From Rhodothermales bacterium (GTDB lineage: Bacteria; Bacteroidota; Rhodothermia; Rhodothermales; Bin80), in NCBI GenBank assembly GCA_965220935.1, contig OZ244857.1, positions 2,440,929-2,504,928 on the forward strand: a stretch of 64,000 nucleotides of DNA, given 5' to 3'. The notes below the pieces were generated by a model. The model did no database searches and was not told where the DNA came from. It was given only the letters and a program-made list of their open reading frames with translations. Numbering within the stretch: position 1 is the stretch's first letter; each line of letters opens with the position of its first letter. Below, piece after piece: positions 6,101 through 28,579 of this stretch. The position numbers were made by a program, and so were the translations under genes.

Positions 6101-8391
6101 GGCTACCTGTTCTTTTCTGTTCTCCGACCATGGAGCTCGGAGTAGATATTGCCTCGCTGAATGCAGTGTACATGCGGAACGTTCCTCCTACGCCAGCCAA
6201 TTACGCACAGCGCAGTGGACGCGCTGGAAGGAGTGGTCAGCCCGCACTAGTAATTACCTACTGCGCAGCACGGTCTCCGCATGATCAATATTTTTTCTCC
6301 AATCCAACACGCATGGTCAGTGGCACTGTTACCCCTCCGAATATAGATTTAGCAAACGAAGATCTCATTCGTAGCCATTTGCAAGCAGTCTGGCTCACTG
6401 AGACAGGTATGAAACTGCCAAAGTCAGTATCCGAAATTCTTGATAGATCGGATAGTCCTGATCATCCTCTACGCGAAGAGATTGAGAAACAAATTCATTC
6501 ATCAAAGATTATATTTCGAGCGCAAACTCGTGCACATCGCATCCTTCAGACGCTGATATCTGCTCTCTCTCCTGAAGATGCTCCTTGGTATACAGATACT
6601 TGGTTGGAAAGTACTATACGAGCCGCAGAGTTACGGTTTAACGAAGCTTTTGATCGATGGCGTTCTCTCTATCGCGCAACAGTTATCCAAATGAGTTCTG
6701 CAGAAAACATCTTGAAAAATGCTGCTGCAACTGAGCAAGACCGGAGTGAGGCAAAGAAGCGACATGATCAGGCGTATACTCAACAAAATCTTCTTCTCGG
6801 AAAGAGAAACGTTACAGTTAACTCTGACTTTTATACCTACCGTTATCTGGCGTCGGAAGGTTTCTTGCCAGGCTATAATTTTCCTCGCCTACCCCTATTA
6901 GCATTTATTCCAGGCCGACGCAAAAAAGTTGGGCGAGATTCATTTTTAAGTAGACCTAGATTTCTAGGACTTTCTGAATTCGGCCCTCGATCAATCATAT
7001 ATCATGAGGGAAGCATATATCGGGTGCAACGTGCTATTTTATCACCACATGATGAGTCCGAGGTAACCATATCCTCCAAACTTCCAGTACAAACTACCAT
7101 GATCTGCAATACCTGCGGTTACGGCCATTTTGGAGATCTGAGTGACTCTGAGCGTTGCGTCAATTGCAATGAATTGCTTGGGGGAGGGCGCATGATCCGC
7201 AACCTTTATCATATTGAGCAGGTCTCTACTCAGAGAATTACACGCATTACTTCTGATGAAGAGGAGCGTAGGCGCCAAGGATACGAAATGATTACAACCC
7301 TTCAATTCAATCAGGACAATGGTCAAGCACGAAGAGAAATAATTACTATTGAGGATAATGATTCTCCTTTATTGGAACTCTGCTATGCTCCTTCTTCAAC
7401 ATTATGGCGTATTAATCTTGGATGGCACCGACGTAAAGAGAAATCTATAAACGGATTTAGTATAGATGCTAATTCTGGCGCATGGACTAAGGATTCTCAG
7501 GCTTTGACAGATGTTCAGGATGACTTAATCCAAGAGGGCAAAACGATTCAACGTATTAGTCCATTTGTGAAAGACACTCGAAATATACTGATTCTTCAAC
7601 CTCTGATTGAATTAGATGAAGTAGTTTTGGTCTCCATGCAATACGCCATCAAGCGGAGTATTGAGCATGAATTCCAACTTGAAGAGTCTGAACTTACTGC
7701 TGAACCTCTGCCCGATCGTCATCAACGTAACAATATTCTATTTTACGAATCTGCTGAGGGAGGGGCAGGGGTACTCGCCCACCTAACAGGTGATCTGGAC
7801 ACTTTTGCAAGAATAGCGAAAAGAGCGCTCAAAATCTGCCACTACAAATCTAAAACTGAAACATGGTCAGGCCTAGATGATCTTGAAAACATGGAGACAG
7901 ACTGCGAAGCTGGTTGCTATAAATGTCTGTTGAGTTACTACAATCAAATTGATCACGCACTGATTGATCGCAGAAATCAAAATCTACTTGACTTGCTTTG
8001 TAGACTGAGTGTCGCTTCCTCAAAAGCACAAACCAATATCACTAGTGCTGACAGCTATGAGGAACTTCTAAATGGTTCATCCTCCTCACTGGAAAAAGAG
8101 TGGTTGAATTTCATCCAATCAAATGGCTATCATCTTCCCGATAAATGCCAACCTTATCTGGAAGCCTATGAGACTCGTCCTGACTTCGCTTACACTAAAT
8201 ACCAAATATTGATCTATATTGATGGTCCGCATCATCAGGAAAAAACTCGTGTGGATGCAGATAAAATCATTGATCGGCGTCTTACAAATGGAGGTTATAC
8301 GGTGATCCGCTTTACTAGTAATCAAAGAGAATGGTTCAAAATTGTACATCAATATTCCTGGGTATTTGGATCAAAGCCATCTACGACATAG
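3151..8391 (+). CDS. Large DExH-box helicase fused to a DUF1998-type zinc module and a C-terminal DUF559/Vsr-like nuclease-fold domain (DrmA+DrmB-like fusion)
   Basis: 1746-aa ORF. Helicase motif I is LTTGTGSGKSLAY (~3490-3510), motif II is LVLDELHTYRG (DELH, 3859-3870), motif III is GTSAT (~aa 269), and the C-lobe carries TMELGVDI and QRSGRAGR (6208-6231, ~aa 1020), so the lobes carry long insertions. DUF1998-like features are a Cys4 ribbon MICNTCGYGHF...CVNC (from 7099), ILFYESAEGGAGVL, and CEAGCYKCLLSYYNQIDH (7903-7950). The tail (8092-8388) reads RPDFAY...ILIYIDGPHH...DADKIIDRRLTNGGYTVIRF, which resembles DUF559. Confidence 0.85.
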   Translation: MNVFAFREKIIAEYARFSRSFTKILSKDILDKVNEIYAKEHFWPPPLVQLNPNFESGGYIKQLVSDGLLHPECDNIFRIRSEDDLFGQPIRLYHHQKEAIRIAAKQESYVLTTGTGSGKSLAYFIPIVNDVLQRKDAGKTTHQITAIVVYPMNALCNSQLEELEKYLTLGYGKGLEPVTFARYTGQESQEQRASIAKNPPDILLTNYVMLELIMTRFMETDKAIRNHAAGLRFLVLDELHTYRGRQGGDVAMLVRRVRERFNENLMCIGTSATMISEGLHAERNEVVASIAGQIFGVSVKPDNVITETLKLVTPSYQSTSNADLRVSIERGIPNNLNYEELSKHPVANWVEHNMGIEKIENKYARIFRPLSIHEGSKRLANETNLDVSVCERYLTDFLLMSHKCQNEKGLSLFAFRLHQFISRAWSVYTTLEPPDTRYITLEGQQFKPGNRNLPLYSLCFCRQCGQEYIPVWAELEGNDPVSFTSRDLNDRLSEEEDRKCGYLMPDTSSLFDSVNIEDQYPESWVEARTGRIQLKPSYRRYAPTSVQVSTDGNVVRQGLPSWFISGSFRFCLNPECDVHYVGNIRELTKLSGLSSEGRSSATTILTLSSLKYLIGTDLDDETKKILAFTDNRQDASLQAGHFNDFIQILMLRGALLAAIQNESDGRLTDNSLTHRVLDHLHLDTFDYASNPQAKGPRAEETLETLRYILGYRLYFDLQRGWRITNPNLEQLGLLEIRYRDLMECCQDEDEWQALHPLIGNMKPESRHEIAREILDLMRKSLCIKTIFLDSERLERVGNASYNLLKEPWGLSEDEKLQPISFMIPRPKRRQDIRSKNLHISHRSVFGKKVKSRNFWGTDNPHYPEKFGEDLYNRIIDDVLSVLTIYGYVDSSDLAGNVTGYTLNSSVLEWHYVKELNEPPSNEFFYQLYKNVANSFKNHDRLFHQLEAGEHTAQVDSETRKEREFRFRKGLASEKVIDGKSESSGLPVLFCSPTMELGVDIASLNAVYMRNVPPTPANYAQRSGRAGRSGQPALVITYCAARSPHDQYFFSNPTRMVSGTVTPPNIDLANEDLIRSHLQAVWLTETGMKLPKSVSEILDRSDSPDHPLREEIEKQIHSSKIIFRAQTRAHRILQTLISALSPEDAPWYTDTWLESTIRAAELRFNEAFDRWRSLYRATVIQMSSAENILKNAAATEQDRSEAKKRHDQAYTQQNLLLGKRNVTVNSDFYTYRYLASEGFLPGYNFPRLPLLAFIPGRRKKVGRDSFLSRPRFLGLSEFGPRSIIYHEGSIYRVQRAILSPHDESEVTISSKLPVQTTMICNTCGYGHFGDLSDSERCVNCNELLGGGRMIRNLYHIEQVSTQRITRITSDEEERRRQGYEMITTLQFNQDNGQARREIITIEDNDSPLLELCYAPSSTLWRINLGWHRRKEKSINGFSIDANSGAWTKDSQALTDVQDDLIQEGKTIQRISPFVKDTRNILILQPLIELDEVVLVSMQYAIKRSIEHEFQLEESELTAEPLPDRHQRNNILFYESAEGGAGVLAHLTGDLDTFARIAKRALKICHYKSKTETWSGLDDLENMETDCEAGCYKCLLSYYNQIDHALIDRRNQNLLDLLCRLSVASSKAQTNITSADSYEELLNGSSSSLEKEWLNFIQSNGYHLPDKCQPYLEAYETRPDFAYTKYQILIYIDGPHHQEKTRVDADKIIDRRLTNGGYTVIRFTSNQREWFKIVHQYSWVFGSKPSTT

Positions 8392-8392
8392 C

Positions 8393-11236
8393 ATGGAGGT
8401 CGTGAACTTCAAGCCTGGAGATTTGGTGCGACTTCGCGGGCGAGAATGGGTTGTTCTTCCAGATCTTCGGGCTGATCTACTCAAAATCCGACCACTTGGT
8501 GGATCCGAGCGTGATGCAACTCTGATCTACCTGCCACTTGAGCCTGAAAAACCCGTTCATTCAACTTTTGACCTTCCCGATCCTGAACAAGTAGGTTCCA
8601 GAGATTCGGCTATGTTATTACGTGACGCTCTTCGTCTAAAACTGCGCTCTGGTGCGGGACCCTTTAGGAGTTTTGGCAATCTCAATTTTGAGCCCAGAAC
8701 CTATCAATTGGTCCCTCTATTGATGTCTCTTAAACAATCTCCCATTCGACTTCTCATCGCTGATGATGTTGGCATTGGAAAAACTATTGAAGCAGGCCTG
8801 ATCGTCAGGGAGATGTTTGACCGTGGTGAGATTGAACGATTTACGGTGATTTGCCCCCCACATTTGTGTGACCAATGGCAACGAGAGTTGGGAGAAAAAT
8901 TTCATTTTGATGCTGAGATCATCCGTACTGGAACAGCTGCTCGCCTGGAGCGAGGTTTACAACAAGATGAGTCTGTTTTTGAGGTCCATCCATTTACGGT
9001 CGTCTCTCTTGATTATATCAAATCAGATCGCAGAAGGACTGATTTCCTCCGTAGTTGCCCGAATTTCGTTATTGTTGATGAAGCTCATACCTGCGTTTCT
9101 GGAAATCCAAATACGCGTCATCAGCGCTACCAGCTCCTCAAAGGACTTTCTAGTGACACTCTGCGAAGCATCGTTCTCCTTACTGCAACCCCACATTCAG
9201 GCAATGATGTTGCATTTCATAATTTACTCTCTTTACTGAAGCCAGAGTTTGCGAAACTTGCTGAATTACCTCCGGGAGATCAACGACAATCCCTTCGTGA
9301 TAAGTTGTCCCAGCATTTTGTACAACGCCGCCGAGGTGATATTGAGGAATGGGAGGATCAGAATCAATTTCCAATCAGGGAAACCCGCGAGAGAACCTAT
9401 CAACTGACGGGAGATTGGGGAGTGTTATTTAGCGAGGTTCTCGTGTATGCTAGAACTATGGTTAAGCGTACAGAAGGAGGTACATCCCTTCAGCAGAGAA
9501 TGTCTTGGTGGGCTGCCCTTGCACTGTTGCGGTGTATTTCCTCTAGCCCTGCAGCCGCCCATATGTCACTGCGAACTCGCCTAAAAGCTACGATCGGAGA
9601 TACAGAAGATGAGCAAATAAATAATTTAGACAAGAACGTCCGTGACACAGTGATTGACGAGGCTGATAACGCTCTAACATCAACTGAAAGCATACCCGCT
9701 GGAACGGTTGAAGCACGAGAGGATTCCCGCATATTAAGCGAGCTAATTGAACGAGCGAAAGAACTACGTGGACCGACAATGGACCCTAAACTCTGTTCTC
9801 TCATCACTGAAATCAAAGCACTGATACGCGATCAATATAGGCCAGTTATTTTCTGCCGCTATATTGCGACAGCACATTATGTTGGGGAACAGTTGAAACA
9901 CGCTCTTCCCTCGCGAAGCACTCATGTCATCACTGTGACAGGAGAACTTGACCCTAATCAACGTGAAGCAGATATTGAATCGTTTCAGCATCTCTCCAGT
10001 GATATTCATCCTGTGCTAGTGGCTACGGATTGTCTTTCTGAAGGAATTAATCTTCAGAATTATTTTAACGCCATCGTTCACTATGATCTTGCGTGGAATC
10101 CAACGCGCCATGAACAGCGAGAGGGCCGTGCAGATCGGTTCGGGCAGACCTCCAAAGTAGTGCGTACGCTCCTGCTCTATGGAGAAAACAATCCCATTGA
10201 CGGTGCAATTATTCGTGTAATACTTAATAAGGCCGAACAGATCCGAAAAGAACTTGGCGTTCATGTTCCTTCACCCGTTGAAAATGACAAGCTTCTGGAG
10301 ACTATAATGATGGCTGCCCTTCTTCAAAGCGATGCATCTACTGCTCTGCCAGATCTTGACTTTGGAAATACTGAGGATGAGGTGGACATTGCCTGGGAAA
10401 GGGTTAAGCAAAAAATTTCCCGAACTGTATTTGCTCAACGTACCTTGAGACCTGATGATGTTATACCAGAATGGGAAAAGACCGTCTCCGTGTTAGGAGG
10501 ATCTCATGATGCAGAACGCTTCGTTCGTTCCGCTACAAATCGTCTCGGAGCCCCGCTCAATGCAGAAAAAGACTACTTTCAATTTCCCGTGAAGCATTTA
10601 CCAAAACAGCTCCAGGATCAATTAGGAGATATAGGATTCAAGGAAACGACGAAAATTACATTCTCCCAGCCACCACCGATGGGTGTAAACTATGTGCACA
10701 GAACTCATCCGATCATTTCAACGCTTGCGGATTATGTAGCAGAGCTCTCATTAGATAATAAGTGTGATATAGGTGCGAGATGTAGCGCTATGTTTACCAG
10801 AGATGTGACAGAGCGGACTGTTCTTTATCTACTCAGACTCCGTTTTCAACTTCATGTTGAGCAACGAAACAGCGACGGGAAATTCATCCCACTTAAATCC
10901 TTGCTTGCTGAAGAGTGTACAGGGGTTGCAATCCGCGGAATTGACTCGCCCGAAATCCTGACAGATCATGATGCTTTTGATCTTCTTTCTGCTGAACCAT
11001 CAAGCAACATGGATACAGGTCAGAAAACATTCATGATCAGACAAGTTTTGGGAGAACTTGATACCGTTGAGAGTATTTTTATCCGCATCGCTAACCAACA
11101 ATCTGAACAGCTTCTTAAAGATCACCGCAGGATTCGTGATGCCAGCGATATGAGAGGGTTAAGATATAATGTAGAACCCTGCCTACCGGTTGATAAGATT
11201 GGGATATATGTTTTTATGCCCTCTGTAAAGTTGTGA
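8393..11236 (+). CDS. SNF2-family helicase (DrmD-like)
   Basis: I place the start at ATG 8393 (MEVVNFKPGD...), 1 nt after the upstream stop (8389-8391). The track's 8342 start would overlap the helicase gene. Motifs seen are LLIADDVGIGKTIEAG (8762-8785), VIVDEAHTC (DEAH, 9076-9087), LLTATPHSG, VLVATDCLSEGINLQ and HYDLAWNPTRHEQREGRADRFGQ. Confidence 0.85.
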   Translation: MEVVNFKPGDLVRLRGREWVVLPDLRADLLKIRPLGGSERDATLIYLPLEPEKPVHSTFDLPDPEQVGSRDSAMLLRDALRLKLRSGAGPFRSFGNLNFEPRTYQLVPLLMSLKQSPIRLLIADDVGIGKTIEAGLIVREMFDRGEIERFTVICPPHLCDQWQRELGEKFHFDAEIIRTGTAARLERGLQQDESVFEVHPFTVVSLDYIKSDRRRTDFLRSCPNFVIVDEAHTCVSGNPNTRHQRYQLLKGLSSDTLRSIVLLTATPHSGNDVAFHNLLSLLKPEFAKLAELPPGDQRQSLRDKLSQHFVQRRRGDIEEWEDQNQFPIRETRERTYQLTGDWGVLFSEVLVYARTMVKRTEGGTSLQQRMSWWAALALLRCISSSPAAAHMSLRTRLKATIGDTEDEQINNLDKNVRDTVIDEADNALTSTESIPAGTVEAREDSRILSELIERAKELRGPTMDPKLCSLITEIKALIRDQYRPVIFCRYIATAHYVGEQLKHALPSRSTHVITVTGELDPNQREADIESFQHLSSDIHPVLVATDCLSEGINLQNYFNAIVHYDLAWNPTRHEQREGRADRFGQTSKVVRTLLLYGENNPIDGAIIRVILNKAEQIRKELGVHVPSPVENDKLLETIMMAALLQSDASTALPDLDFGNTEDEVDIAWERVKQKISRTVFAQRTLRPDDVIPEWEKTVSVLGGSHDAERFVRSATNRLGAPLNAEKDYFQFPVKHLPKQLQDQLGDIGFKETTKITFSQPPPMGVNYVHRTHPIISTLADYVAELSLDNKCDIGARCSAMFTRDVTERTVLYLLRLRFQLHVEQRNSDGKFIPLKSLLAEECTGVAIRGIDSPEILTDHDAFDLLSAEPSSNMDTGQKTFMIRQVLGELDTVESIFIRIANQQSEQLLKDHRRIRDASDMRGLRYNVEPCLPVDKIGIYVFMPSVKL

Positions 11237-11237
11237 T

Positions 11238-14200
11238 ATGGAAAAAATCAGAACTAACGATGTATTCACAGCCTTGAGGATTGAGGGTGGTATTTTACCT
11301 CCAGAATATCTCCAAAGGATCGCACAGCTTAATGCGTCTAATCAATCAGATCAAGATTATGATCTTTCTGAATCACTCATTCTTAAAGAAGAGATTGGTC
11401 GTTATTGGAAAATTGCTACTGACCTTTACGAGCGCTATAATCGATTGCGAGTGCGCCGAAGTACCAGACAGGAATCATCCGTAGTAGAAGATTGGTGTGT
11501 TCCTTTTATTCGGAATATTCTAGGATACGAAAATCTGATTTCAACGAGTGATGTTGAAATTAATGATCGTTTTTTCAAGTTAACTCATGTTACGCATAAT
11601 GGTGCTGTGCCTATTCTTTTGGTATCCCAGGACTCTCTGGACAAATCGTTTCCCGAACTTGGCTATGATGGCCGTAGGCAGGCAGCTCATGGCATTATGC
11701 AGGAATATTTGAATACTGAAGATGCTGCACTTTGGGGAATTATTTCTAATGGATCAAAGCTCCGAATCCTGCGCGATAATGTGAGCCTTACACGTCCTGC
11801 ATTCATAGAGGCCGACCTTGATCTCATTCTCTCAGAAGGACTTTACTCAGAATTTTCTGCCCTCTGGCTTGTAACTCATTCCACACGCCTCCGCCCAATT
11901 GATGATAAACCATCCCTCTGTATAATTGAAACTTGGCGCACAGAAGCTCAAGAAACAGGTCAACGTATCCGAGAAAACTTACGTGTAGGTGTCAGCGAAT
12001 CTCTTCGAAAACTTGGAAGTGGTTTTCTGCGTCATCACAAAAACGATCATCTCAGACAGGCACTTCGGAACGGTGAATTAACTCCAGAGGAGTATTTCCA
12101 GCAACTCCTTCAACTCATTTATCGGCTTCTTTTTCTTTTCACAGCTGAAGATCGTAACCTGCTACACACACCAGAGTCCACGAAAGAACAACGTGGAATC
12201 TACATAGATGGTTACTCTCTAGATCAGATACGCAACCGTACTCTTCGTGGCCGTCATTATGATCAATATGAGGACCTATGGAGGGGACTTCAAGTCACCT
12301 TCCATGCACTTGCACGAGGTTGCTCGGGCCTCGGACTTCCTGCTCTAGGAGGACTTTTTCAAAAGGCCAATGCATTTGATATTGAGCGCTCGGAAATTTC
12401 GAACGCTGATCTGCTTAAGGCCATTAAAAACATCTCTTTCTTTCAATCTAAGCGAAGTCTAACGCGAATCAATTACAGAGATATGGGCACAGAAGAGTTA
12501 GGATCTGTCTATGAAAGTCTATTGGAGCTTCAACCGTTTATTGACGTTGAAAACTGGGTTTTTGGCCTTGTTGGTGATGGGCCTGAAAAAGTCAAAGGAT
12601 CAAAACGAAAGCTCACTGGATCTTATTATACTCCCCCGTCACTTGTGAGCGAATTGATCAAGTCAGCATTGGAACCCGTTATTAAGCAGACTGTGGAAGA
12701 TAATCCAGAGGACCCTCGTGGTGCGATTCTTAAACTGAATATCCTTGATCCTTCGTGCGGTTCCGGGCATTTTCTTTTGGCGGCCGCCCATCGACTTACA
12801 TCCGAGATCGCTTATATAGATCATGGAACAATCTCACCTGATGAAACCACTAGACAGCACATTTTGCGGGAAGTTGTGCAGCATTGCATTTATGGGGTAG
12901 ACATCAATCCTCTTGCTGTTGAACTCTGCAAGACTGCTTTATGGATTGAGACCGTGGAGCCTGGAAAGCCCCTCACCTTTCTTGACTCCCACATTATTCA
13001 GGGAGACAGTCTGGTTGGGATTTTTGATCCATCAATTATGGAAAATGGAATTCCTAATAAGGCATATAATGCTCTAACCGATGACATTAAAGATGTTTGT
13101 CAAAACCTCAAAAAGCGAAATAATGAACCACATTTACCTAGTTTATTTGATGAGGATGCGGCCCTAGAAGTTGCCGTGACGACTATTGACTTAGATTCAA
13201 TGCCAGAGGATACTTTGGGAGATATTGAGCGTAAGTCTGCAGCATGGCAGGATATGCAGCTTGGAGACAGGTGGACGAATGAAAAGTTACGAGCCAATCT
13301 ATTTGTGGGAGCTTTTTTTGCTCCGAAAACATCTGAAACGATTAATCTTGTTCCTCTTTCAAATGATCTCGCTTCACTAGATGGTGACAGTAGTTCTCGG
13401 CGTCCGGGTGTTGATGAATTTATAAATAATTTGGCATTAAAACATTCGTTCCTTCACTGGCATCTTGCCTTTGCAGAGATCATGCAAGATGGTGGATTTA
13501 ACTGTGTCCTTGGAAATCCACCTTGGGAGCGAATTAAGCTACAGGAAAAAGAGTTCTTTTCTACACGATCAGAAGAAATTGCGAATGCTCCAAACAAGGC
13601 AAGTAGAGCTCAACTTATTAAAAAACTAAACAGTGAAGATGCCTCAGTTGCTGAAAAAGCCTTGTTTACTGAATTTCGGAGTGCAAAGCATAGATCTGAT
13701 GCCGTGAGTTTGTTTGCCCGAACAGGAGGACGTTTCCCATTGAGTGGAATTGGAGATCTGAATACTTATCCTCTATTTTCTGAGCTCTTTCTACAACTCG
13801 TCCATCCGCAGGGGCGAGCGGGTTTGATTGTTCCTACAGGTATTGCCACAGATGATACTACAAAAAAATTCTTTAACCATTTGGTTATCAATCACAGGCT
13901 CGTGAGTTTGTTTGACTTTCAAAACAGAGCTGGCATTTTCCCCGACGTTACAGGTTTAATGAGATTTTCTCTCTTAACCTTTAATGGAAATACAAATTCT
14001 GATTCTAAACCAGAATTTGCATTTTTTCTTCATCAAACGGAAAATTTAAAAGAAAAAGAACGACGAATTCAGCTATCAATAGATGATTTTCAGTTATTCA
14101 ATCCGAACACGCTGAACTGCCCCATCTTTCGCACTAATCATGACGTTAACATTGCGCGCAAGATGTTTAAGCGGGGTATCCTGTGGAAGGAAGCAATAGG

Positions 14201-15491
14201 AACTGAACCAGAGAAGAATCCCTGGGGGATCAGATTTATGAGTATGTTTCACATGTCCAATGATTCACATCTATTTAGAACCAGTGATGACTTGCTGGAT
14301 GAGGGGTGGGTGCTACACGGAAACATCTTCATGCGTGATAATGAACGATATTTGCCATTATATGAAGCGAAAATGCTTCACCAGTATGATCATCGTTTTG
14401 CCATGTTTGAAAAAACGGGAGGGGGCAAACCCAAAACTCGAGATCTCACCGTGGAAGAAAAAACAAACCATCATGCGGTTGCCCTACCAAGATACTGGAT
14501 TCCTGCTGCGGAAGTGGAACAAAAGCTTCTGGCGCAATTAAAAGGTCAGTCAGTCAGTCAGTCAGTCAGTCAGTCAGTCAGTCAGTCAGTCAGTCAGTCA
14601 GTCAGTCAGTCAGTCAGTCAGTCATGGACAAACTCAAACGGCTGGCGCGCTACTCGCTCTCAGGGATATCGGAAGTGCAACCAATCAACGAACGACAATA
14701 CTCTCCATGATTGCACCCGTAGGTCTAGGAGATACAGTGTCGGTGATCACCATTGGCTCATGGTTTTCAGAGATATTGCTGGAGCAACCGGTCGGAGAAC
14801 TTGCATCCATACAATTATGCCCTCCATGGGAATGAATCATCATGTTCCGTCTATGAGTATTGATTCCACAAACTGGCTTCAAGCGTTCCGAGATATTGGG
14901 AGGACGGGAGACAACCGTACCCTTATATCAAGTAATTTACCACAAAGTGGGATTGGGAATTCTGCTCCTATCATCAATTATGACCATGCACGAGCCGTGG
15001 CCTCTGCACTTATTCTGGCAAATATGAATAGCATTCCCCTAGACTGGGCAGCTCGCCTTTCAGTTGGCGGAACACATATGAGCTTTTTCATTGTGAAACA
15101 ACTCCCAGTCTTACCCCCTGATGTATTTCTGGAGATGAGTAGATGCAATTGCACATGGGTGCAATTAATTATTCCCCGCGTCTTAGAACTGACCTACACA
15201 TCACATGAAATGACTCCTTTCGCCAGAGATCTAGGATTTGAAGGTCCCCCCTTCACATGGGACGATGAGAAACGTCATTGCCTCAAATCTGAACTTGACG
15301 CAATTATTGCTCATATGTATGAACTTGACCGATCTGACCTTGAATGGATTATTGATCCGCCCCCACCAAGCTCATCTTTCCCAGTTCTTAAATCTCATGA
15401 AATTAAAGAATTCGGAGAGTATCGTACCAAACGCTATGTTCTAAAAGCTTACGATCAAATTCAACGCGGAGAGATACCTAATCTTCCCTAA
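11238..15491 (+). CDS. Large gamma-class N6-adenine DNA methyltransferase (Eco57I-like / DrmMI-like) containing an internal tetranucleotide repeat
   Basis: 1417-aa ORF starting 1 nt after the SNF2 stop. It carries GSYYTPPSLV, motif I ILDPSCGSGHFLLAA (~12741-12785) and motif IV GNPPWERIK (13512-13538). The order I then IV indicates gamma class. C-terminal blocks are LHQYDHRF, RDI..RT modules, GGTHMSFFIVKQLPVLPP, RVLELTYTSHEM and GEYRTKRYVL. The frame is maintained through the (GTCA)20 tract at 14545-14624. Confidence 0.85.
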   Translation: MEKIRTNDVFTALRIEGGILPPEYLQRIAQLNASNQSDQDYDLSESLILKEEIGRYWKIATDLYERYNRLRVRRSTRQESSVVEDWCVPFIRNILGYENLISTSDVEINDRFFKLTHVTHNGAVPILLVSQDSLDKSFPELGYDGRRQAAHGIMQEYLNTEDAALWGIISNGSKLRILRDNVSLTRPAFIEADLDLILSEGLYSEFSALWLVTHSTRLRPIDDKPSLCIIETWRTEAQETGQRIRENLRVGVSESLRKLGSGFLRHHKNDHLRQALRNGELTPEEYFQQLLQLIYRLLFLFTAEDRNLLHTPESTKEQRGIYIDGYSLDQIRNRTLRGRHYDQYEDLWRGLQVTFHALARGCSGLGLPALGGLFQKANAFDIERSEISNADLLKAIKNISFFQSKRSLTRINYRDMGTEELGSVYESLLELQPFIDVENWVFGLVGDGPEKVKGSKRKLTGSYYTPPSLVSELIKSALEPVIKQTVEDNPEDPRGAILKLNILDPSCGSGHFLLAAAHRLTSEIAYIDHGTISPDETTRQHILREVVQHCIYGVDINPLAVELCKTALWIETVEPGKPLTFLDSHIIQGDSLVGIFDPSIMENGIPNKAYNALTDDIKDVCQNLKKRNNEPHLPSLFDEDAALEVAVTTIDLDSMPEDTLGDIERKSAAWQDMQLGDRWTNEKLRANLFVGAFFAPKTSETINLVPLSNDLASLDGDSSSRRPGVDEFINNLALKHSFLHWHLAFAEIMQDGGFNCVLGNPPWERIKLQEKEFFSTRSEEIANAPNKASRAQLIKKLNSEDASVAEKALFTEFRSAKHRSDAVSLFARTGGRFPLSGIGDLNTYPLFSELFLQLVHPQGRAGLIVPTGIATDDTTKKFFNHLVINHRLVSLFDFQNRAGIFPDVTGLMRFSLLTFNGNTNSDSKPEFAFFLHQTENLKEKERRIQLSIDDFQLFNPNTLNCPIFRTNHDVNIARKMFKRGILWKEAIGTEPEKNPWGIRFMSMFHMSNDSHLFRTSDDLLDEGWVLHGNIFMRDNERYLPLYEAKMLHQYDHRFAMFEKTGGGKPKTRDLTVEEKTNHHAVALPRYWIPAAEVEQKLLAQLKGQSVSQSVSQSVSQSVSQSVSQSVSQSWTNSNGWRATRSQGYRKCNQSTNDNTLHDCTRRSRRYSVGDHHWLMVFRDIAGATGRRTCIHTIMPSMGMNHHVPSMSIDSTNWLQAFRDIGRTGDNRTLISSNLPQSGIGNSAPIINYDHARAVASALILANMNSIPLDWAARLSVGGTHMSFFIVKQLPVLPPDVFLEMSRCNCTWVQLIIPRVLELTYTSHEMTPFARDLGFEGPPFTWDDEKRHCLKSELDAIIAHMYELDRSDLEWIIDPPPPSSSFPVLKSHEIKEFGEYRTKRYVLKAYDQIQRGEIPNLP
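14545..14624 (+). repeat. Perfect tetranucleotide simple-sequence repeat (GTCA)x20 (equivalently an AGTC tract) inside the methyltransferase ORF
   Basis: Counted base by base: g14545 through a14624 is 80 nt, or 20 units with no interruption. It translates as G(QSVS)x6QS. The tract has no stop codon in any forward frame. Confidence 0.97.
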
Positions 15492-15794: not shown

Positions 15795-18539
15795 ATGCAC
15801 CATTTCGAAATGCCCATGAATCTAGGTAAGAAAAACACCGTTGTGGTTCTTGACCGCCACAGCTACATCACTCAACGTCTTAATTTTGCCCGTGAACATG
15901 CTCATGGAACCCAGATCATGATGATGAGTGACCTGGCCATCAGACTTGCGGGTGGATTCATTAAAACCGTTGACATTTCGTTTCTTCGGGCCACCATTCA
16001 TGAAACGATTCTTGATACAGATCTTGGAAGCTTAAATGTTATCAAAGATCTTCCAGGATTTGTGGCAGCAGCTACAAATACGCTTAACAAGGCCTGGCTC
16101 AGCGGCTATGATCTGAACCAATCACACCCTCGTGTGAAAGAGATTGCTCGTCTAAATGCTGCTGTGACCAAACGATTGCCACCTTCAATGCTACCACCTG
16201 CATCTCTCATTGCTGAAGCCTATAAGAACATTGCCCATGCACCTACAATTTTAGGTAGCATCAGATTCATGGGAATGACAGAACTCCACCCGTGCTGGTG
16301 GCCCCTGATTGAGCAATTGTGCGATCATGTACCTGTCACTTGGGTTGCAGGACCTCGACATATTCCTATGCACCTACCTAAGGGATGTGAACTGAAAACC
16401 GAATCTAAACAATGTCCACAAATCAAAACAATAAGCTGCTCAACCCCCTATCATGAAGCTATTGAAGCGATGCGATGGGCACGCCAACTAGTGACCCAAC
16501 AGGGAGTTCTTCCTCAAGATATCGCCATTGCTACAACGGATACAAAAATATACGATGACTTCTTTTTGGCATTACGGGAGGAATCTGACCTCCCCCTCTA
16601 TTTTGCGCATGGAATCAATGTCACCCAACCCGCCCATGGCCAATCAATTCTGGCACTAGCAGATCTTCTACTTCGTGGACTCTCCTCTGACCGGATTCAT
16701 CGACTGAGCTCTCATAAACAATTCTTAACCGATAAGATCAAAAACCTGAGAGATGCATGGTGGACGTTCACTATTAAAAATCATGACATCAATCTTCTCT
16801 CCCCAGATGAGTTAAAGATCAGGGCTCAAAAGTTAATTGCCGAAGAGAGGAAATCTGATTACTTACCGCTGGCAAACCTCCTCACAGAGATCAACAAGAA
16901 TACCAAATTCAGATTGGATCAAAACCCCGTCATGAGCTTGGAAGATCATATTGCAATGAAGCAGTCATGGCTTAAAACTGGAGAAAAACTCCTTTCAGGC
17001 GCAGCGCTTAAACTATGGAAAAATCTCCTCAAAGTTGCACCTGCTGCTTCACTTGAACAAGAAGCCCCTAGAATGTCAGTCCCTGAGCCTCCAGAATTCT
17101 GTGAACGCGTCGCATGGATGCCCGCTCAATCCCTTGCCGCTTCCCCACGCAAACACGCCCGACTTCTTGGGCTTAATTCATACCATTGGCCCCGAGAAAA
17201 CATCAAGGATTTACTATTGACCGGGCCTGGATTAGAAAATGCAAGTGAATCCTTAGATCCGCTGCCAGTAGCGGATGCCGATCAACGCGATTTTTCTACA
17301 ATCTGTAACACAACCTCTGAATCGGTCATTTGCTCTTTTTCTAGATACGATGCCGATGGAAAAGTGCTCGGACGTAGCCACCTGCTTACACCTGACATCT
17401 ACCATCCCACTTTAAAGTTATTTCGCAACTCTAGTCCTCCACATGCAATGAGCGAATCTGACTATCTGCTCGCTTCGCCCGATAAATTCAAACAGAATGA
17501 TCATGCGATCAGAGCGCTCCAATGTTGGACAAATTGGAACACATGTCACATTACCGAACACGACGGGTTGATCAAAGAAAATCACCCCCTGATTCGCCAT
17601 GTCCTCAAAAAACCCGCATCGGCCACTTCACTGACGCGCATGTTACGAGCCCCACTCGGATATATTTGGTATTATGGCTTGCATTGGCGAGGAGTGACTA
17701 CTCAGTCGGACCGCCTAACTTTAAGCCCTCTTAACTTCGGAATCTTGGTTCACCGTGCATTACAATCCATCCTTCAAACTCTTGAGTTCATCCGAAAAAA
17801 TTCTGAAGCAACCCCTATAAGTGATTCCATTATATCCTCGCTTGAATCTACATTTGAGATATGGGAATCTCTATATGGAACGCCACCAAAATTGCTGTGG
17901 GAAGAGACAAAAAAACAGATACAATCTATCACAACAACGGTGTTCAATGACTATCCATCAACAGAGAGTACATTATCGTTTTCTGAGGTTCCATTTGGGG
18001 GTAATAAATCAGAGATGAACCAAGATTCTCCGTGGGATTCAGACCGCCCCGTCACTCTTCCAGGAACAGACTTAAAAATTACTGGCTTCATAGACCGTAT
18101 TGACATTGATTACAATGACCTTCAAGCGCGTCTTACTGATTACAAAACAGGAAAACCAACGAAGAAGTCTGGGTTAAGAGGTGGACTTGAACTCCAAAGA
18201 TGCATTTACTATGTCGCTGCAAATTCACTATTACAGTCAGAGTTGGACATTTCTACCAGCCTCCTATATCTCCAGAATGGAGATCAGCTTACACTGCCCG
18301 AACCCCAACAAGAATTCATCAATGATCTATCAAAAAATGTAAATGAAGCCATTAAGAATTTCAACCAAGGTCATGTTTTCTTTGGGGCAAGCCCCAAACA
18401 AAAACATGATTTGGGTATCTATCGTGATCTGAAACTTGCTCTACCAGCCGATCTCCTTAGAGATTATGTTTCCAGAAAAGAGAAAGCACAAAACCAGAGA
18501 TTGGGACCTACGCTCCAAGAATTTTGGGAATCAGACTAA
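15795..18539 (+). CDS. AddB/RexB-like PD-(D/E)XK nuclease subunit (no Walker A, no Fe-S cysteine cluster)
   Basis: 914-aa ORF. The C-terminal RecB-family nuclease motifs are ITGFIDRIDIDYNDLQARLTDYKTGK and LELQRCIYYVAA (QxxxY). There is no GxxxxGK[ST] at the N-terminus, and only one Cys lies in the last 150 aa. It overlaps the next gene through a TAATG junction. Confidence 0.7.
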   Translation: MHHFEMPMNLGKKNTVVVLDRHSYITQRLNFAREHAHGTQIMMMSDLAIRLAGGFIKTVDISFLRATIHETILDTDLGSLNVIKDLPGFVAAATNTLNKAWLSGYDLNQSHPRVKEIARLNAAVTKRLPPSMLPPASLIAEAYKNIAHAPTILGSIRFMGMTELHPCWWPLIEQLCDHVPVTWVAGPRHIPMHLPKGCELKTESKQCPQIKTISCSTPYHEAIEAMRWARQLVTQQGVLPQDIAIATTDTKIYDDFFLALREESDLPLYFAHGINVTQPAHGQSILALADLLLRGLSSDRIHRLSSHKQFLTDKIKNLRDAWWTFTIKNHDINLLSPDELKIRAQKLIAEERKSDYLPLANLLTEINKNTKFRLDQNPVMSLEDHIAMKQSWLKTGEKLLSGAALKLWKNLLKVAPAASLEQEAPRMSVPEPPEFCERVAWMPAQSLAASPRKHARLLGLNSYHWPRENIKDLLLTGPGLENASESLDPLPVADADQRDFSTICNTTSESVICSFSRYDADGKVLGRSHLLTPDIYHPTLKLFRNSSPPHAMSESDYLLASPDKFKQNDHAIRALQCWTNWNTCHITEHDGLIKENHPLIRHVLKKPASATSLTRMLRAPLGYIWYYGLHWRGVTTQSDRLTLSPLNFGILVHRALQSILQTLEFIRKNSEATPISDSIISSLESTFEIWESLYGTPPKLLWEETKKQIQSITTTVFNDYPSTESTLSFSEVPFGGNKSEMNQDSPWDSDRPVTLPGTDLKITGFIDRIDIDYNDLQARLTDYKTGKPTKKSGLRGGLELQRCIYYVAANSLLQSELDISTSLLYLQNGDQLTLPEPQQEFINDLSKNVNEAIKNFNQGHVFFGASPKQKHDLGIYRDLKLALPADLLRDYVSRKEKAQNQRLGPTLQEFWESD

Positions 18540-21500
18540 TGCCCAAACAAAACACTTCCCTGGCTGATTCGCAGTCCAGAAATCGAGCCCTAACAGCGAT
18601 TGATGAATCCCTAGTTGTTGAGGCTGGCGCTGGAACCGGAAAGACAACGATTCTGGCAGGACGGATTGCGGTGATGCTAACTCTGGGAAAACCTCCTCAA
18701 CACATTGTTGCTGTAACATTCACAGAAGCCGCTGCCAGTGAGCTCCTTCTGCGGGTTCGAGAGTATGTACACCTTCTTCAAACAGGACAATTTCCGCCCG
18801 GGCTAAAAGCTGCCCTTGACGGAGAGCTGACTCCTAAGCAAAAGAAGAACCTTGAAAAAGCGGAAGACAACCTTGATGCATTAACATGCTCTACAATCCA
18901 CGGCTTCTGTCAGCGCGTGCTCAAAACGTTTCCTGTGGAAGCGAATATTGATCCTGGAGCAACCGTGATGGATGAAATGCAATCTAAAGGTGTCTTTCAT
19001 GAAGTCATGCACGGGTGGCTTAGACAAATTCTGTCTGATGATGATGGATACTTAGTTGCACAAATCTTGACGCGTAACAATCTTGATCATCTTCAAAAAA
19101 TCACGAACTGTGTGCGCATACATCGACAGGCTATCGCTAAACCGATGCATCAACTTGATGAGCGTCTCATAGAGTTCAGAGATTCACTCCAACAGTATGT
19201 GGATAACATCAGCAATATGGAGGAAAGCGTCCCCTCCGCGAAGGCAATTGCTAAAATTTTCATCCAATGGATTGAGATGTCTAAGATTACCCCAGAATCC
19301 AGCGTCAGCGAAATCATTGCATGCATTGATTTCGCCGCAAAAAATGAGCTCGTTACTCAAGAGAATTCCCGAACCACAGTGACGACCTACTATAATAGGT
19401 CAACTGCATCTGACTGGAATAAGGCATTGTCAGGAACAAAAAAATCCATCAACGAGGCCCGGAAGCGTGCAACCGATCTCTACAATCATGTCCGCGACCT
19501 ATGGAACAAGAGTATTCGTCATGAACTCTCTTCTGTGCTTCTTGGCCAACTCCTCGTTGACCTTAAGGGCTTATTAAAGCGCTACCAACAGTATAAACGA
19601 TCCGCAGGCCTCCTAGATTTTGATGACCTCATTATTGGAGTTTTAGAGCTACTTAGGCATCCTGATCATGGGCATGATGTTCGGCAAGCCCTCGCGAAGC
19701 AGTATCGTTATATCTTGGTTGACGAGTTTCAGGATACCGATGCTCAGCAAGCGGAAATTTTCTGGAGTCTTAGTAGCAGTGATCATCATGATGACTGGAC
19801 TAAACTTAAACCTCGTGCGGGCTCGCTATTTATCGTTGGTGATCCAAATCAATCAATATACAGGTTTCGAGGAGCGAACGTTGACATTTATTCAAAAGCA
19901 CGAAAAACATTCCCATCCAACAATGTGCTGAGCATTGTCACAAACTTCCGATCAACTGCCCCAGTCCTTGAGTTTATCAATGACAGATTCACACAACCGC
20001 TATCTGATGGTTACACCCATTTAATCCCCTTTAACCAGGAAACAAATGATTCACCATCAGTGGCGTCTATAGGATTTAATCCAAATGATGCAACAAATTC
20101 CAAGTTCCATGAAACCGAAGCGGTCGCTGTTGCCCAAGTATGCCATGAATTAATAACGTCACACTATCAAGCCAGCGATATTGCGTTGTTGACTCCGACT
20201 GGAACTGAGATACACTATTACGAACAGGCGCTACAAAATTTGGGAATTCAATTTGAAGCGCAGGCAGGCAAAAACTTCTTTCTTCTTCAAGAAATTCAAG
20301 ACTTAGTTGCATTAACGCTCATACTAGCGGATGGGAATAACAGTTTAGCCTTGGGGGCCTTCCTTAGAGGCCCACTGGTTGGAATCACCGACCAAGAACT
20401 CCTTGATTTAGCCTGGAAATTGCCACGAAATCCAGACCGACCTGATGAAACGGCTTCTCTGAATGCATGGATTGATGTGAATGTGATCAAACATGAAATT
20501 ATTTCAGATGTGATTATTAAACTCCAATCACTATTAAAGATTGCACATCGGTGCACCCCCTATCTGTTGTTAGCTTCTGCAGTAGACTGCTTCCACATCC
20601 GGGCACATCTAAGGCTTCGCTATGGCGATCAAGCGCCCCGAGCACTCTCAAATGTGGATCTCTTCCTTGAAAAAGCAAGGGCATACAATATCAGAGGTCT
20701 CAGGGATTTTGCCTCATCAATCTATCAAAAGTGGGGAGATGAAACCCCTACTCCCGAAGCGAAACCAGATATTTCACAGGACGCTGTTACGATCAGTACG
20801 ATACACAATGCAAAGGGGCTTGAGTGGCCAGTAGTGATCCCTATTAATACATGGAAGAGCCCAAGACCTGCAGATAACATCATCGTTGACCGATTGACCA
20901 GTGAGATATATGCATCCATATTCTCAATTCAGACCAGTGGCTTTGATGAAATCAAAGCACACGAGAATGAGCAGCTGCGAGATGAAAGGATCCGCCTGTG
21001 GTATGTCGCGGCAACCCGTGCTCGGAATCTGCTTCTGCTGACAGCACCAACAAACTTAGATCCTACTGCCACAGACAAGAGTTGGAGAGCAATCGTTGAT
21101 CTACGCACAGATGATCTACCATATTTCACTTCCAAGCGAATTCCAAAAAAAGATAATGAGGTGCTCCCTGAAAAGGTGAAGGTGCAAACATACGAGGATT
21201 TTATTGCCGAAGGTGATCAAATCAAACAGGTATCAAACCGCCTGAGATGGATCAGTCCAAGTAAAGATGAAGTTCCGCCTATTGATCTGGAGACCACAAT
21301 TATTGATGACGAGGATCACAGTATTGAAACGGCTGATATTCAAGGCAAAGGGTTCATTAGGGGATTAGTGATTCACCGATTAATTGAAGAAATAATCACT
21401 GGCGAGACCCATCGCGAAGATCTGTCATGCAGAGCACAGCAACTCAGTGACCAGATCCACACATCATTTGAAATTCATCCCCCTGTTGTAATGGATACTG

Positions 21501-21820
21501 AAGAGATAAGTTTTCGCATCCAGAGAACGTTGGATCTACCACCGATTAGCCATCTCTTGGGTTCCTTAGTCCCTGAATGTCCAGTATATAATGTTGTCTC
21601 AGATACAGAAAAAGAATCTGTTATCACTGGCATTGCTGATGCAATCAGCTTTTCATCAGATGGTTCTCCACAATTGATTATTGACTGGAAAAGTGGGAGG
21701 GCGACATCCCACCATCAGCAGCAAATCGGAGCTTACATGAATGCAGCCGGCATTTCCAAAGGCCTCTTAGTTTACATTGACAGCGGTCAAATCAAAGAAG
21801 TCAATGTATCCATACGATAA
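18539..21820 (+). CDS. AddA/UvrD-family helicase with C-terminal PD-(D/E)XK nuclease domain
   Basis: I place the start at ATG 18539, overlapping the upstream TAA (18537-18539); the track starts at TTG 18524. UvrD motifs seen are VEAGAGTGKTT, VAVTFTEAAASEL, TIHGFC, LVDEFQDTD, GDPNQSIYRFRGA, TIHNAKGLEWPVV and LWYVAATRAR. The C-terminal nuclease signature is GIADAISF...QLIIDWKSG...QQIGAY. Confidence 0.8.
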   Translation: MPKQNTSLADSQSRNRALTAIDESLVVEAGAGTGKTTILAGRIAVMLTLGKPPQHIVAVTFTEAAASELLLRVREYVHLLQTGQFPPGLKAALDGELTPKQKKNLEKAEDNLDALTCSTIHGFCQRVLKTFPVEANIDPGATVMDEMQSKGVFHEVMHGWLRQILSDDDGYLVAQILTRNNLDHLQKITNCVRIHRQAIAKPMHQLDERLIEFRDSLQQYVDNISNMEESVPSAKAIAKIFIQWIEMSKITPESSVSEIIACIDFAAKNELVTQENSRTTVTTYYNRSTASDWNKALSGTKKSINEARKRATDLYNHVRDLWNKSIRHELSSVLLGQLLVDLKGLLKRYQQYKRSAGLLDFDDLIIGVLELLRHPDHGHDVRQALAKQYRYILVDEFQDTDAQQAEIFWSLSSSDHHDDWTKLKPRAGSLFIVGDPNQSIYRFRGANVDIYSKARKTFPSNNVLSIVTNFRSTAPVLEFINDRFTQPLSDGYTHLIPFNQETNDSPSVASIGFNPNDATNSKFHETEAVAVAQVCHELITSHYQASDIALLTPTGTEIHYYEQALQNLGIQFEAQAGKNFFLLQEIQDLVALTLILADGNNSLALGAFLRGPLVGITDQELLDLAWKLPRNPDRPDETASLNAWIDVNVIKHEIISDVIIKLQSLLKIAHRCTPYLLLASAVDCFHIRAHLRLRYGDQAPRALSNVDLFLEKARAYNIRGLRDFASSIYQKWGDETPTPEAKPDISQDAVTISTIHNAKGLEWPVVIPINTWKSPRPADNIIVDRLTSEIYASIFSIQTSGFDEIKAHENEQLRDERIRLWYVAATRARNLLLLTAPTNLDPTATDKSWRAIVDLRTDDLPYFTSKRIPKKDNEVLPEKVKVQTYEDFIAEGDQIKQVSNRLRWISPSKDEVPPIDLETTIIDDEDHSIETADIQGKGFIRGLVIHRLIEEIITGETHREDLSCRAQQLSDQIHTSFEIHPPVVMDTEEISFRIQRTLDLPPISHLLGSLVPECPVYNVVSDTEKESVITGIADAISFSSDGSPQLIIDWKSGRATSHHQQQIGAYMNAAGISKGLLVYIDSGQIKEVNVSIR

Positions 21821-23558: not shown

Positions 23559-23652
23559 ATGGATCTCTCCAGACGTTGCCAGCAAGAACGACAAAAACCC
23601 ATAGGTTCTGTCGTTTCTGTTTCTCTTTTTACTCTTTAATCTACCCAATTTA

Positions 23653-25026: not shown

Positions 25027-25041
25027 TTTTCGGACAACCCC

Positions 25042-25987
25042 CATCAATCATCATGGTGTCCCCTAATGGAACATCATTGAATGTTTTTGCGAGAACCTGT
25101 CGTTTCCTCTTATCAATACCGTGGGCGCGCTGTCTATAATACTGAAGTCGAAACTCCGCCCCCTTTTCAAGGACAATCCGCAGGCCCGCATCCGTCATTT
25201 GATGATTGTTAGATTTAAGATAATTAGCAGCAGGCTTAACATAGGAAATGATATGCTGTGGCCATCCATGCGTTTGCTCAGAGATGGACTCAATCCATGG
25301 AGTTGGATCATCTATCGCTCCACCTGCTTCCGTGAGCCAATCTCGGATCACTTTATATTCTGAATCTTTATCCAATCGCCCCAGATTTATTAAAGATTCT
25401 CCTTCAAATCGTGATATGCCCAGTGAGTTAAAAGCAGACTCGGTCGTGCCAAGTCCAGCGGACAGAAGAATGACTGGACGGTCTAACCGCCCATTATGAA
25501 TCGCTTTGAGTACGTTGGCGGCAACCGTGTGCTGTTGACCAACTGGCTTGTTTGAACCTCCAAGCATCTGCGCCTCGTCCAAGATGAGAAGTAAAGGTTT
25601 CCTCCCCGACTTGAGGACTTTTTTGATGGTTGCGGCAGAATCCTTCACACTTAGTTCAATGCTCCCAACCTCTGGTAGCCCTGCGTTCACCTTTCCACTA
25701 AGCTTTTTTAGTATATTCCGATCTGGAATGGATTCGCGGAGGGTCTTAACATCCCAAAGAGCGGGCGCATCAATTTCAGCAGTTTTCCATTTTCGGTCCT
25801 CAGCAACCAGCCTCAGTTGATCAAGTAATGCCGTCTTTCCCGCGCCCGGTGCTCCTTGTATCAGGAAAGTGGATCCCCTTTTTTTGGAGAGATAGCGTTT
25901 AAGGGCGCTGGTAAACATGTCAATAACTTCTTGCCTCCCGTGAAAATATTCAGCAGGTCCTCGATCCTCAATGAAATCAGAACTCAT
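25042..25987 (-). pseudogene. N-terminal ~315 codons of ATPase paralogue A (disrupted by IS insertion)
   Basis: The track ORF 25019..25987 reads normal paralogue sequence up to ...PLGDTMMID, then runs into the IS right end (GGCPKIS, then stop). Walker A FLIQGAPGAGKTALL and Walker B LLLILDEAQ are intact. Confidence 0.9.
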
Positions 25988-26056
25988 GGTATTTCAGGAT
26001 TGATTAAATGCACGCAAACGCTGGAAATTTGATCTCGGTTGATCATGTCGTAGCAT

Positions 26057-28555: not shown

Positions 28556-28579
28556 AATATTTTTGGGTTGATTTAATGG

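Follow-up and report, generated by a model that had tools for sequence, protein, structure and literature searches.

Does a long tetranucleotide repeat inside a bacterial defense gene act as a switch, and if so, between which products? The question is raised by a stretch of 64,000 nucleotides from a Rhodothermales bacterium (GenBank assembly GCA_965220935.1, contig OZ244857.1, positions 2,440,929 to 2,504,928; the whole stretch is called the window), where 20 units of GTCA lie within the gene of an Eco57I/PglX-like N6-adenine DNA methyltransferase. The original prediction, made from the letters alone, was that slipped-strand gain or loss of a unit toggles this gene between a full-length protein and products truncated at the C terminus. 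The comparison of the window with its relatives indicates that the tract is very probably a contingency locus that chooses among three C termini by a slippage-driven change of frame. The tract and the two landmarks used to place it are as follows.

14545-14624, + strand: (GTCA)x20 simple-sequence repeat, read as (QSVS)n in the present frame.
13515-13526, + strand: catalytic motif IV, NPPW, from the translation; N760, P761, P762, and W763 are invariant in alignment A1.
14361-14396, + strand: anchor 'YEAKMLHQYDHR', the last family-wide conserved motif before the switch.

The 80-nt GTCA run is perfect (100% matches, 0 indels, Tandem Repeats Finder score of 160), its period of 4 does not continue past either end, and no other long microsatellite occurs within the 64-kb window. 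A chance origin of a perfect tetranucleotide run of this length is discounted. The unit, read directly from the sequence, is a rotation of AGTC. The tract is located inside the open reading frame (ORF) 11238-15491 (+ strand, 1,417 aa), at 78% of the gene length, 3' of the catalytic motif and with its start 148 nt from the anchor. This perfect intragenic repeat, with a unit length that is not a multiple of 3, has the form of a contingency locus, and 20 tetranucleotide units are well inside the hypermutable range of the contingency loci of Haemophilus. The tract has no stops in any of the three frames, and the consequences of a change in length were computed by simulating tracts of 15 to 25 units. 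The full-length ORF, up to the stop at 15489-15491, is read with 3n+2 units, as at present (20; state A); translation ends at the stop 14833-14835 with 3n+1 units (19; state B) and at the stop 14708-14710 with 3n units (21; state C). The perfect tract within the methylase ORF, its position 3' of the catalytic motif, and the frame outcomes for 19, 20, and 21 units had all been part of the original prediction: Tandem Repeats Finder and a check of the sequence confirmed the first, the location of NPPW agrees with the second, and the simulation reproduced the third exactly.

The DNA downstream of the tract holds three copies of one module, distributed over more than one frame.

14624-14710, + strand: frame C tail of 28 residues, 'MDKLKRLARYSLSGISEVQPINERQYSP' and stop ('MDKLKRLARYSLSG...SP' and stop), reached with 3n units; stop at 14708-14710.
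14625-14753, + strand: linker 'WTNSNGWRATRSQGYRKCNQ...' of 43 codons, the state A reading of the copy 1 DNA; stop-free and not selected as protein.
About 14647-14757, + strand: module copy 1, 'ALLALRDIGSATNQRTTILSMIAPVGLGDTVSVITIGS', in frame B (3n+1 units, e.g., 19); product stop at 14833-14835.
14754-14873, + strand: module copy 2, 'WLMVFRDIAGATGRRTCIHTIMPSMGMNHHVPSMSIDSTN', in frame A.
14874-15491, + strand: module copy 3, 'WLQAFRDIGRTGDNRTLISSNLPQSGIGNSAP', and C-terminal domain, in frame A; stop at 15489-15491.

Relatives that carry no repeat run from '...PRYWV..EV..RL..KGW.R.WLMG' straight into one module, 'WRDITNATNERTVIA.V.PR.GVGN..P', after which come about 200 further residues, and their single 'WRDI..ERT' module is in frame. 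The repeat-bearing clade has three modules at fixed spacings of 107 nt (copy 1 to copy 2) and 120 nt (copy 2 to copy 3), and because of these spacings, copy 1 is always one frame off copies 2 and 3. Copy 3 with the C-terminal domain is the counterpart of the single module and C-terminal domain of the repeat-free relatives. From this arrangement, a single ancestral 'WRDI..ERT..G.GN' module appears to have been triplicated in the repeat clade. Copy 3 and the C-terminal domain align to positions 375-462 of 523 in NCBIfam TIGR02987 (Alw26I-family adenine methylase), and the module region is therefore assigned to the enzyme's conserved C-terminal half, which is target-recognition-like. The frame C tail has a recurrent motif, 'DxLxxLARxSLSG'.

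Copy 1 has an identity of its own. Its orthologs are 50% identical across genomes versus about 30% to the other copies, which makes it the most conserved of the three, and they share the signature 'RTG[IV]..MIP..GL[SG][DH][ST]G'. For all 48 copies from 16 genomes, the nearest neighbor was the same copy type in another genome and never a copy from the same genome (0/48). Gene conversion was considered as the cause of the conservation of copy 1 and was rejected, given that 48/48 copies cluster by type and never by genome.

Selection was explored frame by frame, using Nei-Gojobori ratios of nonsynonymous to synonymous differences (pN/pS) on 20 loci, together with wobble-phase tests.

14627-14662 (first 36 nt): pN/pS of 1.12 in frame A, 1.25 in frame B, and 0.67 in frame C.
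14663-14700 (copy 1): pN/pS of 2.18 in frame A, 0.38 in frame B, and 0.95 in frame C.
14701-14757 (copy 1): pN/pS of 1.52 in frame A, 0.49 in frame B, and 0.87 in frame C.
14758-14876 (copy 2): pN/pS of 0.45 in frame A, 0.95 in frame B, and 1.22 in frame C.
14877-15060 (copy 3 onward): pN/pS of 0.32 in frame A, 1.13 in frame B, and 1.95 in frame C.

The wobble-phase tests gave P values of 1.2e-7 for frame B over copy 1 and, for frame A, of 1e-7 over copy 2 and 5e-20 over copy 3. Conservation of copy 1 in frame B follows the order codon position 2 > position 1 > position 3, and an earlier analysis of 11 sequences gave the same picture. These substitution patterns indicate that copy 1 is under purifying selection in frame B, and copies 2 and 3 with the C-terminal domain in frame A.

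The protein family has more than 7,800 members at E values of up to 1e-10, and the sample of relatives comprised 80 genome loci, 28 metagenome loci, and contigs of the closest relative. Of the 120 closest protein homologs (47-80% identity), 57 have a periodic peptide at the homologous site, about 50 residues past the anchor 'YEAKxxHQYDHR'; its period is 5 aa in most cases and 7, 8, or 2 aa in others, over runs of 11-147 aa. At the DNA level, nearly every locus of the clade defined by at least about 50% identity carries a perfect repeat, which lies 137-201 nt past the anchor and ends 141-155 nt upstream of module copy 2. These tracts are built from 18 different repeat units with lengths of 1, 2, 4, 5, 8, or 10 nt: C, AG, GTCA, ACTC, CAAC, ACCG, and CAGA among the units of 1-4 nt; GCCGA, GCACA, CAGGA, TCACC, TCGGG, CAGAG, and CCGAC among those of 5 nt; and, in addition, AGAGCAGC, GCCAGCGG, AATCAAGCAG, and TCGAGAAGAA. 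None of the 18 lengths is divisible by 3, for which the chance is roughly (2/3)^18 = 7e-4 if one third is expected. Copy numbers range from 6 to about 40 at the DNA loci and up to about 88 as deduced from proteins. The closest relative (80% identity; locus L001) has (CTCA)6 at the homologous site instead of (GTCA)20. No repeat was found in the more distant clade at 35-45% identity (e.g., Niveibacterium, Pseudomonas paralcaligenes, Bordetella, and Massilia).

Hosts of the repeat clade belong to at least nine phyla, with Bacteroidota, Proteobacteria, Acidobacteriota, Actinobacteriota, Chloroflexota, Gemmatimonadota, Verrucomicrobiota, Binatia, and Latescibacterota as the host groups. Many of the metagenome contigs have accession prefixes of Mediterranean sponge metagenomes, habitat being read from record titles and prefixes. 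The expectation that such a tract would be unusual in a genome of this kind was thus not borne out, since tracts are a clade-wide rule over these phyla. An equivalent Q/S/V linker with non-repetitive codons was not found in the repeat-free relatives, which run straight into the module.

Alleles were compared within protein clusters at 90% identity, with identity measured over the first 1,000 aa. Near-identical alleles differ in the number of units and in frame, which shows that tract length is not invariant among relatives.

P0060, P0137, and P0138: 98.7-98.8% identical, with unit numbers of about 32 (state C), 13 (state A), and 7 (state A).
P0102 and P0155: 98.6% identical, with unit numbers of about 20 (state B) and 13 (state A).
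P0121 and P0122: about 97% identical each to the cluster representative, with about 8 and 20 units.

In the last pair, P0122 is in state A and P0121 ends early in the frame A reading. One cluster at 94-96% identity differs even in the type of unit. Length differences between close alleles are therefore a property of the gene family. All three states occur among the 21 loci with a fully assembled tract (A, 5; B, 9; C, 7), so that 16 of the 21 genomes read a frame other than A and state B is more frequent than either of the others. In 18/18 loci, none of the three frames has a stop inside the tract, and of 13 genomes in state B or C, 12 keep frame A open for 286-328 codons past it.

These data can be brought together in a mechanism in which slipped-strand mispairing during replication would add or remove 4-nt units of (GTCA)n, and each such change would move the translation of the C-terminal part of the methylase to another of the three frames. 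In state A, the tract peptide would be followed by the 43-aa linker, which is not under selection, by copies 2 and 3, and by the entire C-terminal domain; this is the complete enzyme, the form closest to the repeat-free relatives and most likely methylation competent. State B would end with copy 1 and about 25 further residues, and the frame-specific conservation suggests that this short isoform is maintained by natural selection. State C, with its 28-residue tail, is most likely a null or minimal form. On this evidence, the switch would choose among isoforms of which at least two are under selection and a third is short. Since a PglX-like methylase and probable specificity factor is placed in a defense cassette, switching would alter the methylation and defense state of the cell, and this change would be stochastic and reversible within a population. 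We infer the slippage mechanism and its rate from established knowledge of microsatellite contingency loci, and we infer, rather than observe, which isoforms methylate and what isoform B does. By analogy with PglX, states B and C would probably lose normal sequence-specific methylation. In Serratia's class 1 DISARM, the one studied, loss of drmMI resulted in no autoimmunity. This, together with the occurrence of all three states in nature, suggests that states other than A are tolerated, and it weakens, although only indirectly, the concern about autoimmunity that had been raised for this locus.

The slipped-strand toggle of the original prediction therefore stands as a phase-variation switch, supported by the tracts of the relatives, the allele lengths, the three states, and the open frames, but the outcome goes beyond full-length versus truncated protein, because the 19-unit frame encodes a conserved module that appears to be under purifying selection. 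A wider reading, plausible though put forward tentatively, would join a frame-multiplexed switch of three C termini with a short isoform B of distinct activity, populations that cycle through three defense and epigenetic states, and a design spread by horizontal transfer through at least nine phyla, especially in sponge microbiomes. Isoform B could then, for example, recognize its target in an altered or more relaxed way, or act independently of methylation as a scaffold that alters the behavior of the helicase/SNF2 cassette.

Several observations weigh against a three-way contingency switch. No conspecific of the host was found, the best relative being at 80% in the protein search and at 65% in the metagenome scan, and what the between-assembly data reveal is polymorphism, as distinct from a rate of switching or from reversal inside one lineage. 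The 19-20 sequences behind the selection tests are related to one another and lack phylogenetic independence. Selection on frame C over 14627-14662 is borderline (wobble-phase P of 0.05) and suggestive only; for this reason, selection on the frame C tail is not claimed. One B-state locus, L092, has a frame A that is closed shortly past the tract, and in L001, copies 1 and 3 have undergone local gene conversion (a 43-nt identical stretch). Moreover, both AlphaFold2 (AF2) models, one of the window protein and one of a homolog, have a predicted local distance difference test (pLDDT) score below 50 over the tract, linker, and modules, and neither model supports a packing of copies 1, 2, and 3 or a way in which copy 1 would complete a fold.

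The plainest alternative is a binary ON/OFF switch in which only state A matters, B and C are equivalent nulls, and copy 1 is conserved for other reasons, such as a nucleic-acid element or a constraint of duplication history. This would be in line with the classical mod phasevarions, which are ON/OFF, with the lack in both isoforms B and C of the conserved C-terminal domain found in every repeat-free relative, and with the failure to obtain a confident AF2 fold for copy 1. It is nevertheless unlikely: the coding pattern of copy 1 is specific to frame B (pN/pS of 0.38-0.49 versus 1.5-2.2 in frame A), this copy has its own signature and the highest conservation of the three (50%), and state B is the commonest in the assemblies (9/21). 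We consider it less likely still that the DNA tract is fairly stable and that the isoforms are made together, in a fixed ratio and without heritable switching, by transcriptional slippage or ribosomal frameshifting on the repeat. Near-identical alleles many units apart at the DNA level argue against this, as do consensus genomes that occupy all three frames; and most units are of 4-10 nt, for which transcriptional slippage is not established, although some clade tracts are homopolymeric (C x10, x11, and x29), where slippage of RNA polymerase is well known, and a three-frame design would suit coexpression as well. Because of the polymorphism in the DNA, slippage at the RNA level or in translation could add to DNA slippage, especially on the homopolymers, but cannot replace it.

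Two further explanations deny any switching. That the repeat is a flexible linker of variable length, or a neutral microsatellite that is merely tolerated, is hardly credible when no unit length among 18 is divisible by 3, 16 of 21 genomes read another frame than A, and the downstream DNA has selected coding sequence in a second frame; what speaks for it is that this domain-boundary site tolerates 6 to about 88 units and arbitrary peptides, and that the state A peptide is hydrophilic and of low complexity. The other, an artefact of assembly or sequencing, or pseudogenes decaying across the clade, could draw on the many truncated database proteins and on short-read assemblies that break at the tract: metagenome contigs L084, L086, and L089 begin inside it, and the metagenome-assembled genome (MAG) L016 has a gap of Ns there. 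Such breaks and gaps would, as expected, fit long or heterogeneous repeats. More than 40 independent assemblies have a tract at the homologous site, among them the chromosome-level MAGs OZ242302.1, OY762508.1, and OY729512.2, and in out-of-frame genomes, the downstream frames are intact and show purifying selection, which makes this explanation extremely improbable. A contingency locus with three C termini remains the reading that we favor.

Individual loci of the family showed further features at or near the switch site. L020 has two adjacent tracts, (CAGT)x7.8 followed by (CAGA)x12.2, at 9319-9396; this suggests that units turn over by point mutation inside a tract followed by expansion. L001 has a G10 homopolymer at 13182-13191, 130 nt upstream of (CTCA)6, where a frameshift cuts the annotated protein at 1,064 aa; it is possibly a second switch or a sequencing error. 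The window has an interrupted run, GGGAGGGGG, at the matching site (14417-14425). L015 (Bryobacterales; about 9138-10260) carries about 500 extra bases between copies 2 and 3, and L015 and L092 are possibly insertions or decayed members of the clade.

The methylase is the third gene of a cassette.

3151-8391, + strand: gene 1, DEAD/DEAH helicase with MZB/DUF1998 and a C-terminal DUF559 (Vsr-like nuclease), 1,746 aa (Pfam, PADLOC).
8342-11236, + strand: gene 2, SNF2-family helicase, DrmD/DpdE-like, 964 aa (Pfam SNF2-rel_dom, Helicase_C).
11238-15491, + strand: gene 3, Eco57I/PglX-like N6-adenine DNA methyltransferase, 1,417 aa in state A (Pfam, PADLOC).

PADLOC matched gene 1 best to DruE (1.6e-94 versus 6e-14 for DrmA), which makes it DruE/DrmA+DrmB-like, and gene 2 to DpdE (2e-196) and DrmD (8.5e-83); against the NCBIfam model DISARM_DrmD, gene 2 scored 321.6 bits, under the cutoff of 610. 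Gene 3 matched DrmMI in PADLOC (1.5e-66, aa 453-766 only), along with type IIG entries, and PF07669, PF02384, and PF20473 (Eco57I, N6_Mtase, and MmeI_Mtase) in Pfam; its Pfam and NCBIfam matches are to Eco57I, MmeI_Mtase, BREX PglX, and the Alw26I family. Pfam and NCBIfam gave no match to type III Mod or Res in the cassette, and Pfam detected no nuclease family in aa 1-440 of gene 3 and nothing in the regions before and after the tract, even at E values of up to 5. The methylase and the parts of gene 3 that resemble target recognition domains are similar to type IIG/IIL enzymes, and the best structural match is the nuclease-less BREX PglX. This match (PglX/BrxX, 8c45; E = 2e-10) was obtained with the AF2 model of P0021, a 66%-identical homolog that is a natural state B protein; further matches were CamA, DrdV, LlaBIII, and BpuSI, and Foldseek supports just a PglX/CamA/TaqI/BpuSI-like architecture. 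The pLDDT was 62 for the model of window aa 440-1417 and 72 for that of P0021. The C-terminal profile had no match when searched against PDB sequences, and only NCBIfam TIGR02987 connects copy 3 and the C-terminal domain with the C-terminal part of Alw26I-family methylases.

The order of helicase-DUF1998, SNF2, and methylase was kept in 32/32 related loci examined. The separate drmA, drmB (DUF1998), and drmC (PLD) genes of the class 1 DISARM layout were not found: no PLD domain was detected anywhere in the cassette by Pfam, PADLOC, or NCBIfam, and NCBIfam DISARM models scored under their cutoffs for it. The cassette is DISARM-like and not a canonical class 1 DISARM, because of these subcutoff scores, the fusion of helicase and DUF1998, and the lack of a PLD gene. 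The original designation of gene 3 as a DISARM-type methylase is accordingly narrowed to DISARM-like.

Downstream of the methylase (15795-21820, + strand) are a PD-(D/E)XK nuclease (914 aa) and a UvrD-family helicase (1,098 aa) with overlapping ends, a pair that is AddAB-like or a separate Gabija-like/RTasHel-like defense module. These two genes were considered as members of the system and rejected, since they are syntenic in no relative (absent from 32/32 related cassettes). Directly 3' of the island lie two Mutator-family transposase ORFs (22533-25026, + strand; 341 and 457 aa), the first apparently partial, as it matches only profile positions 144-346. Adjoining the defense island are four tandem paralogs (25019-29920, - strand; 322-446 aa), each with an AAA_16/STAND-like ATPase domain. 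A 1,844-aa protein at 31839-37373 (+ strand) has 14 fibronectin type III domains and a C-terminal sorting tail of the type IX secretion system (T9SS). Its gene has a GC content of 0.58-0.60 versus a background of 0.43-0.45, a tandem duplication of 303 nt with 99% identity between its copies (32304-32902), and an array of 309 nt x2.3 (35388-36079); the product has the look of a eukaryote-like repeat protein that expanded recently and was possibly acquired horizontally. The genes with a T9SS tail, DUF5686, and SusE-like products elsewhere in the window fit a Bacteroidota host.

That microsatellites drive phase variation of DNA methylases is textbook knowledge where type I and III systems and a small number of host-adapted pathogens are concerned. 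The present family extends the principle to a DISARM-like, PglX-like defense methylase across many phyla. Many of the hosts are sponge symbionts, and stochastic switching of defense and epigenetic state may therefore be general in dense, phage-rich environmental communities. Module copies in two frames, both apparently under purifying selection, would be a rare clear case in which frameshifts select products and do not destroy the protein. In practical terms, annotation routinely presents the genes of the clade as truncated or split, and the tract breaks assemblies; the genes will therefore be undercounted in censuses of defense systems, and mixed states should be anticipated when the methylomes of such MAGs are studied.

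Part of this is already known, namely phase variation of type I and III methylases by simple sequence repeats (SSRs), the polyG tract of Cj0031, inversions in DrmMI-like genes, and C-terminal SSR switching in Helicobacter. AGTC and AGCC are repeat units used in type III mod genes, which share with the window gene an intragenic tetra- or pentanucleotide repeat in the DNA methyltransferase of a defense system and a change of frame by slipped strands. Phase-variable mod genes (phasevarions) of Haemophilus, Neisseria, and others have been surveyed (PMC5909438). Unlike type III Mod, the window enzyme is of the gamma class, Eco57I/PglX-like and 1,417 aa long, and its partners are a helicase and SNF2, not Res. 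The repeat is at 78% of the gene, in the recognition-like C-terminal half, whereas mod repeats are near the 5' end; the outcome is three defined C termini, two of them apparently selected, in contrast with the ON/OFF of mod; and its hosts, which come from many phyla, live in the environment or as symbionts and are not host-adapted pathogens.

The pglX gene of the Pgl/BREX system of Streptomyces coelicolor is phase variable through a G tract. To our knowledge, neither a triplicated module nor multiframe coding has been described for this gene or for methylases such as Cj0031. The latter, a type IIG methylase of C. jejuni, undergoes polyG phase variation (PMC4889913). Both resemble the window gene in broad structural class (the best PDB match being BREX PglX/BrxX) and as methylases of multigene defense systems that are switched by a repeat frameshift, but their tracts are homopolymers and their outcome is ON/OFF.

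Truncated HsdS variants are known to alter the specificity of type I systems. In Helicobacter canadensis, SSRs mediate the switching of C-terminal sequences (PMC2823697). As in the window gene, a repeat toward the 3' part of the gene changes the C terminus and the protein is not abolished. What sets the window family apart is that its alternative C terminus is a duplicated, orthologous module, apparently under purifying selection in its own frame, in a design that crosses phyla.

With class 1 DISARM (Ofir 2018; Aparicio-Maldonado 2021, bioRxiv 10.1101/2021.12.28.474362), the cassette shares a DrmD-like SNF2 protein, a DrmMI-like N6A methylase, and a helicase with DUF1998; it differs in that the helicase and DUF1998 are fused (with DruE as the best match), DUF559 is present, the PLD protein DrmC is absent, and the gene order is another. 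We found no literature description of SSR switching in DrmMI-like methylases, although literature coverage is incomplete and a prior description is possible, and none of the triplicated-module, multiframe design, where the same incomplete coverage means that absence is not proof. Loci of the same kind were studied by Milman et al. 2023 (PMC9881135), who reported programmed inversions in DrmMI-like genes of DISARM-like loci, described as 'similar to Class 1 DISARM' and with a single coding sequence for the YprA helicase and DUF1998 domains; the phrase 'simple sequence repeat' is absent from the text of that paper. In both cases, programmed variation is targeted to a DrmMI-like gene of a similar locus. 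The mechanisms differ: site-specific inversion swaps gene segments in the loci of Milman et al., whereas microsatellite slippage would choose among overlapping frames in the family described here.

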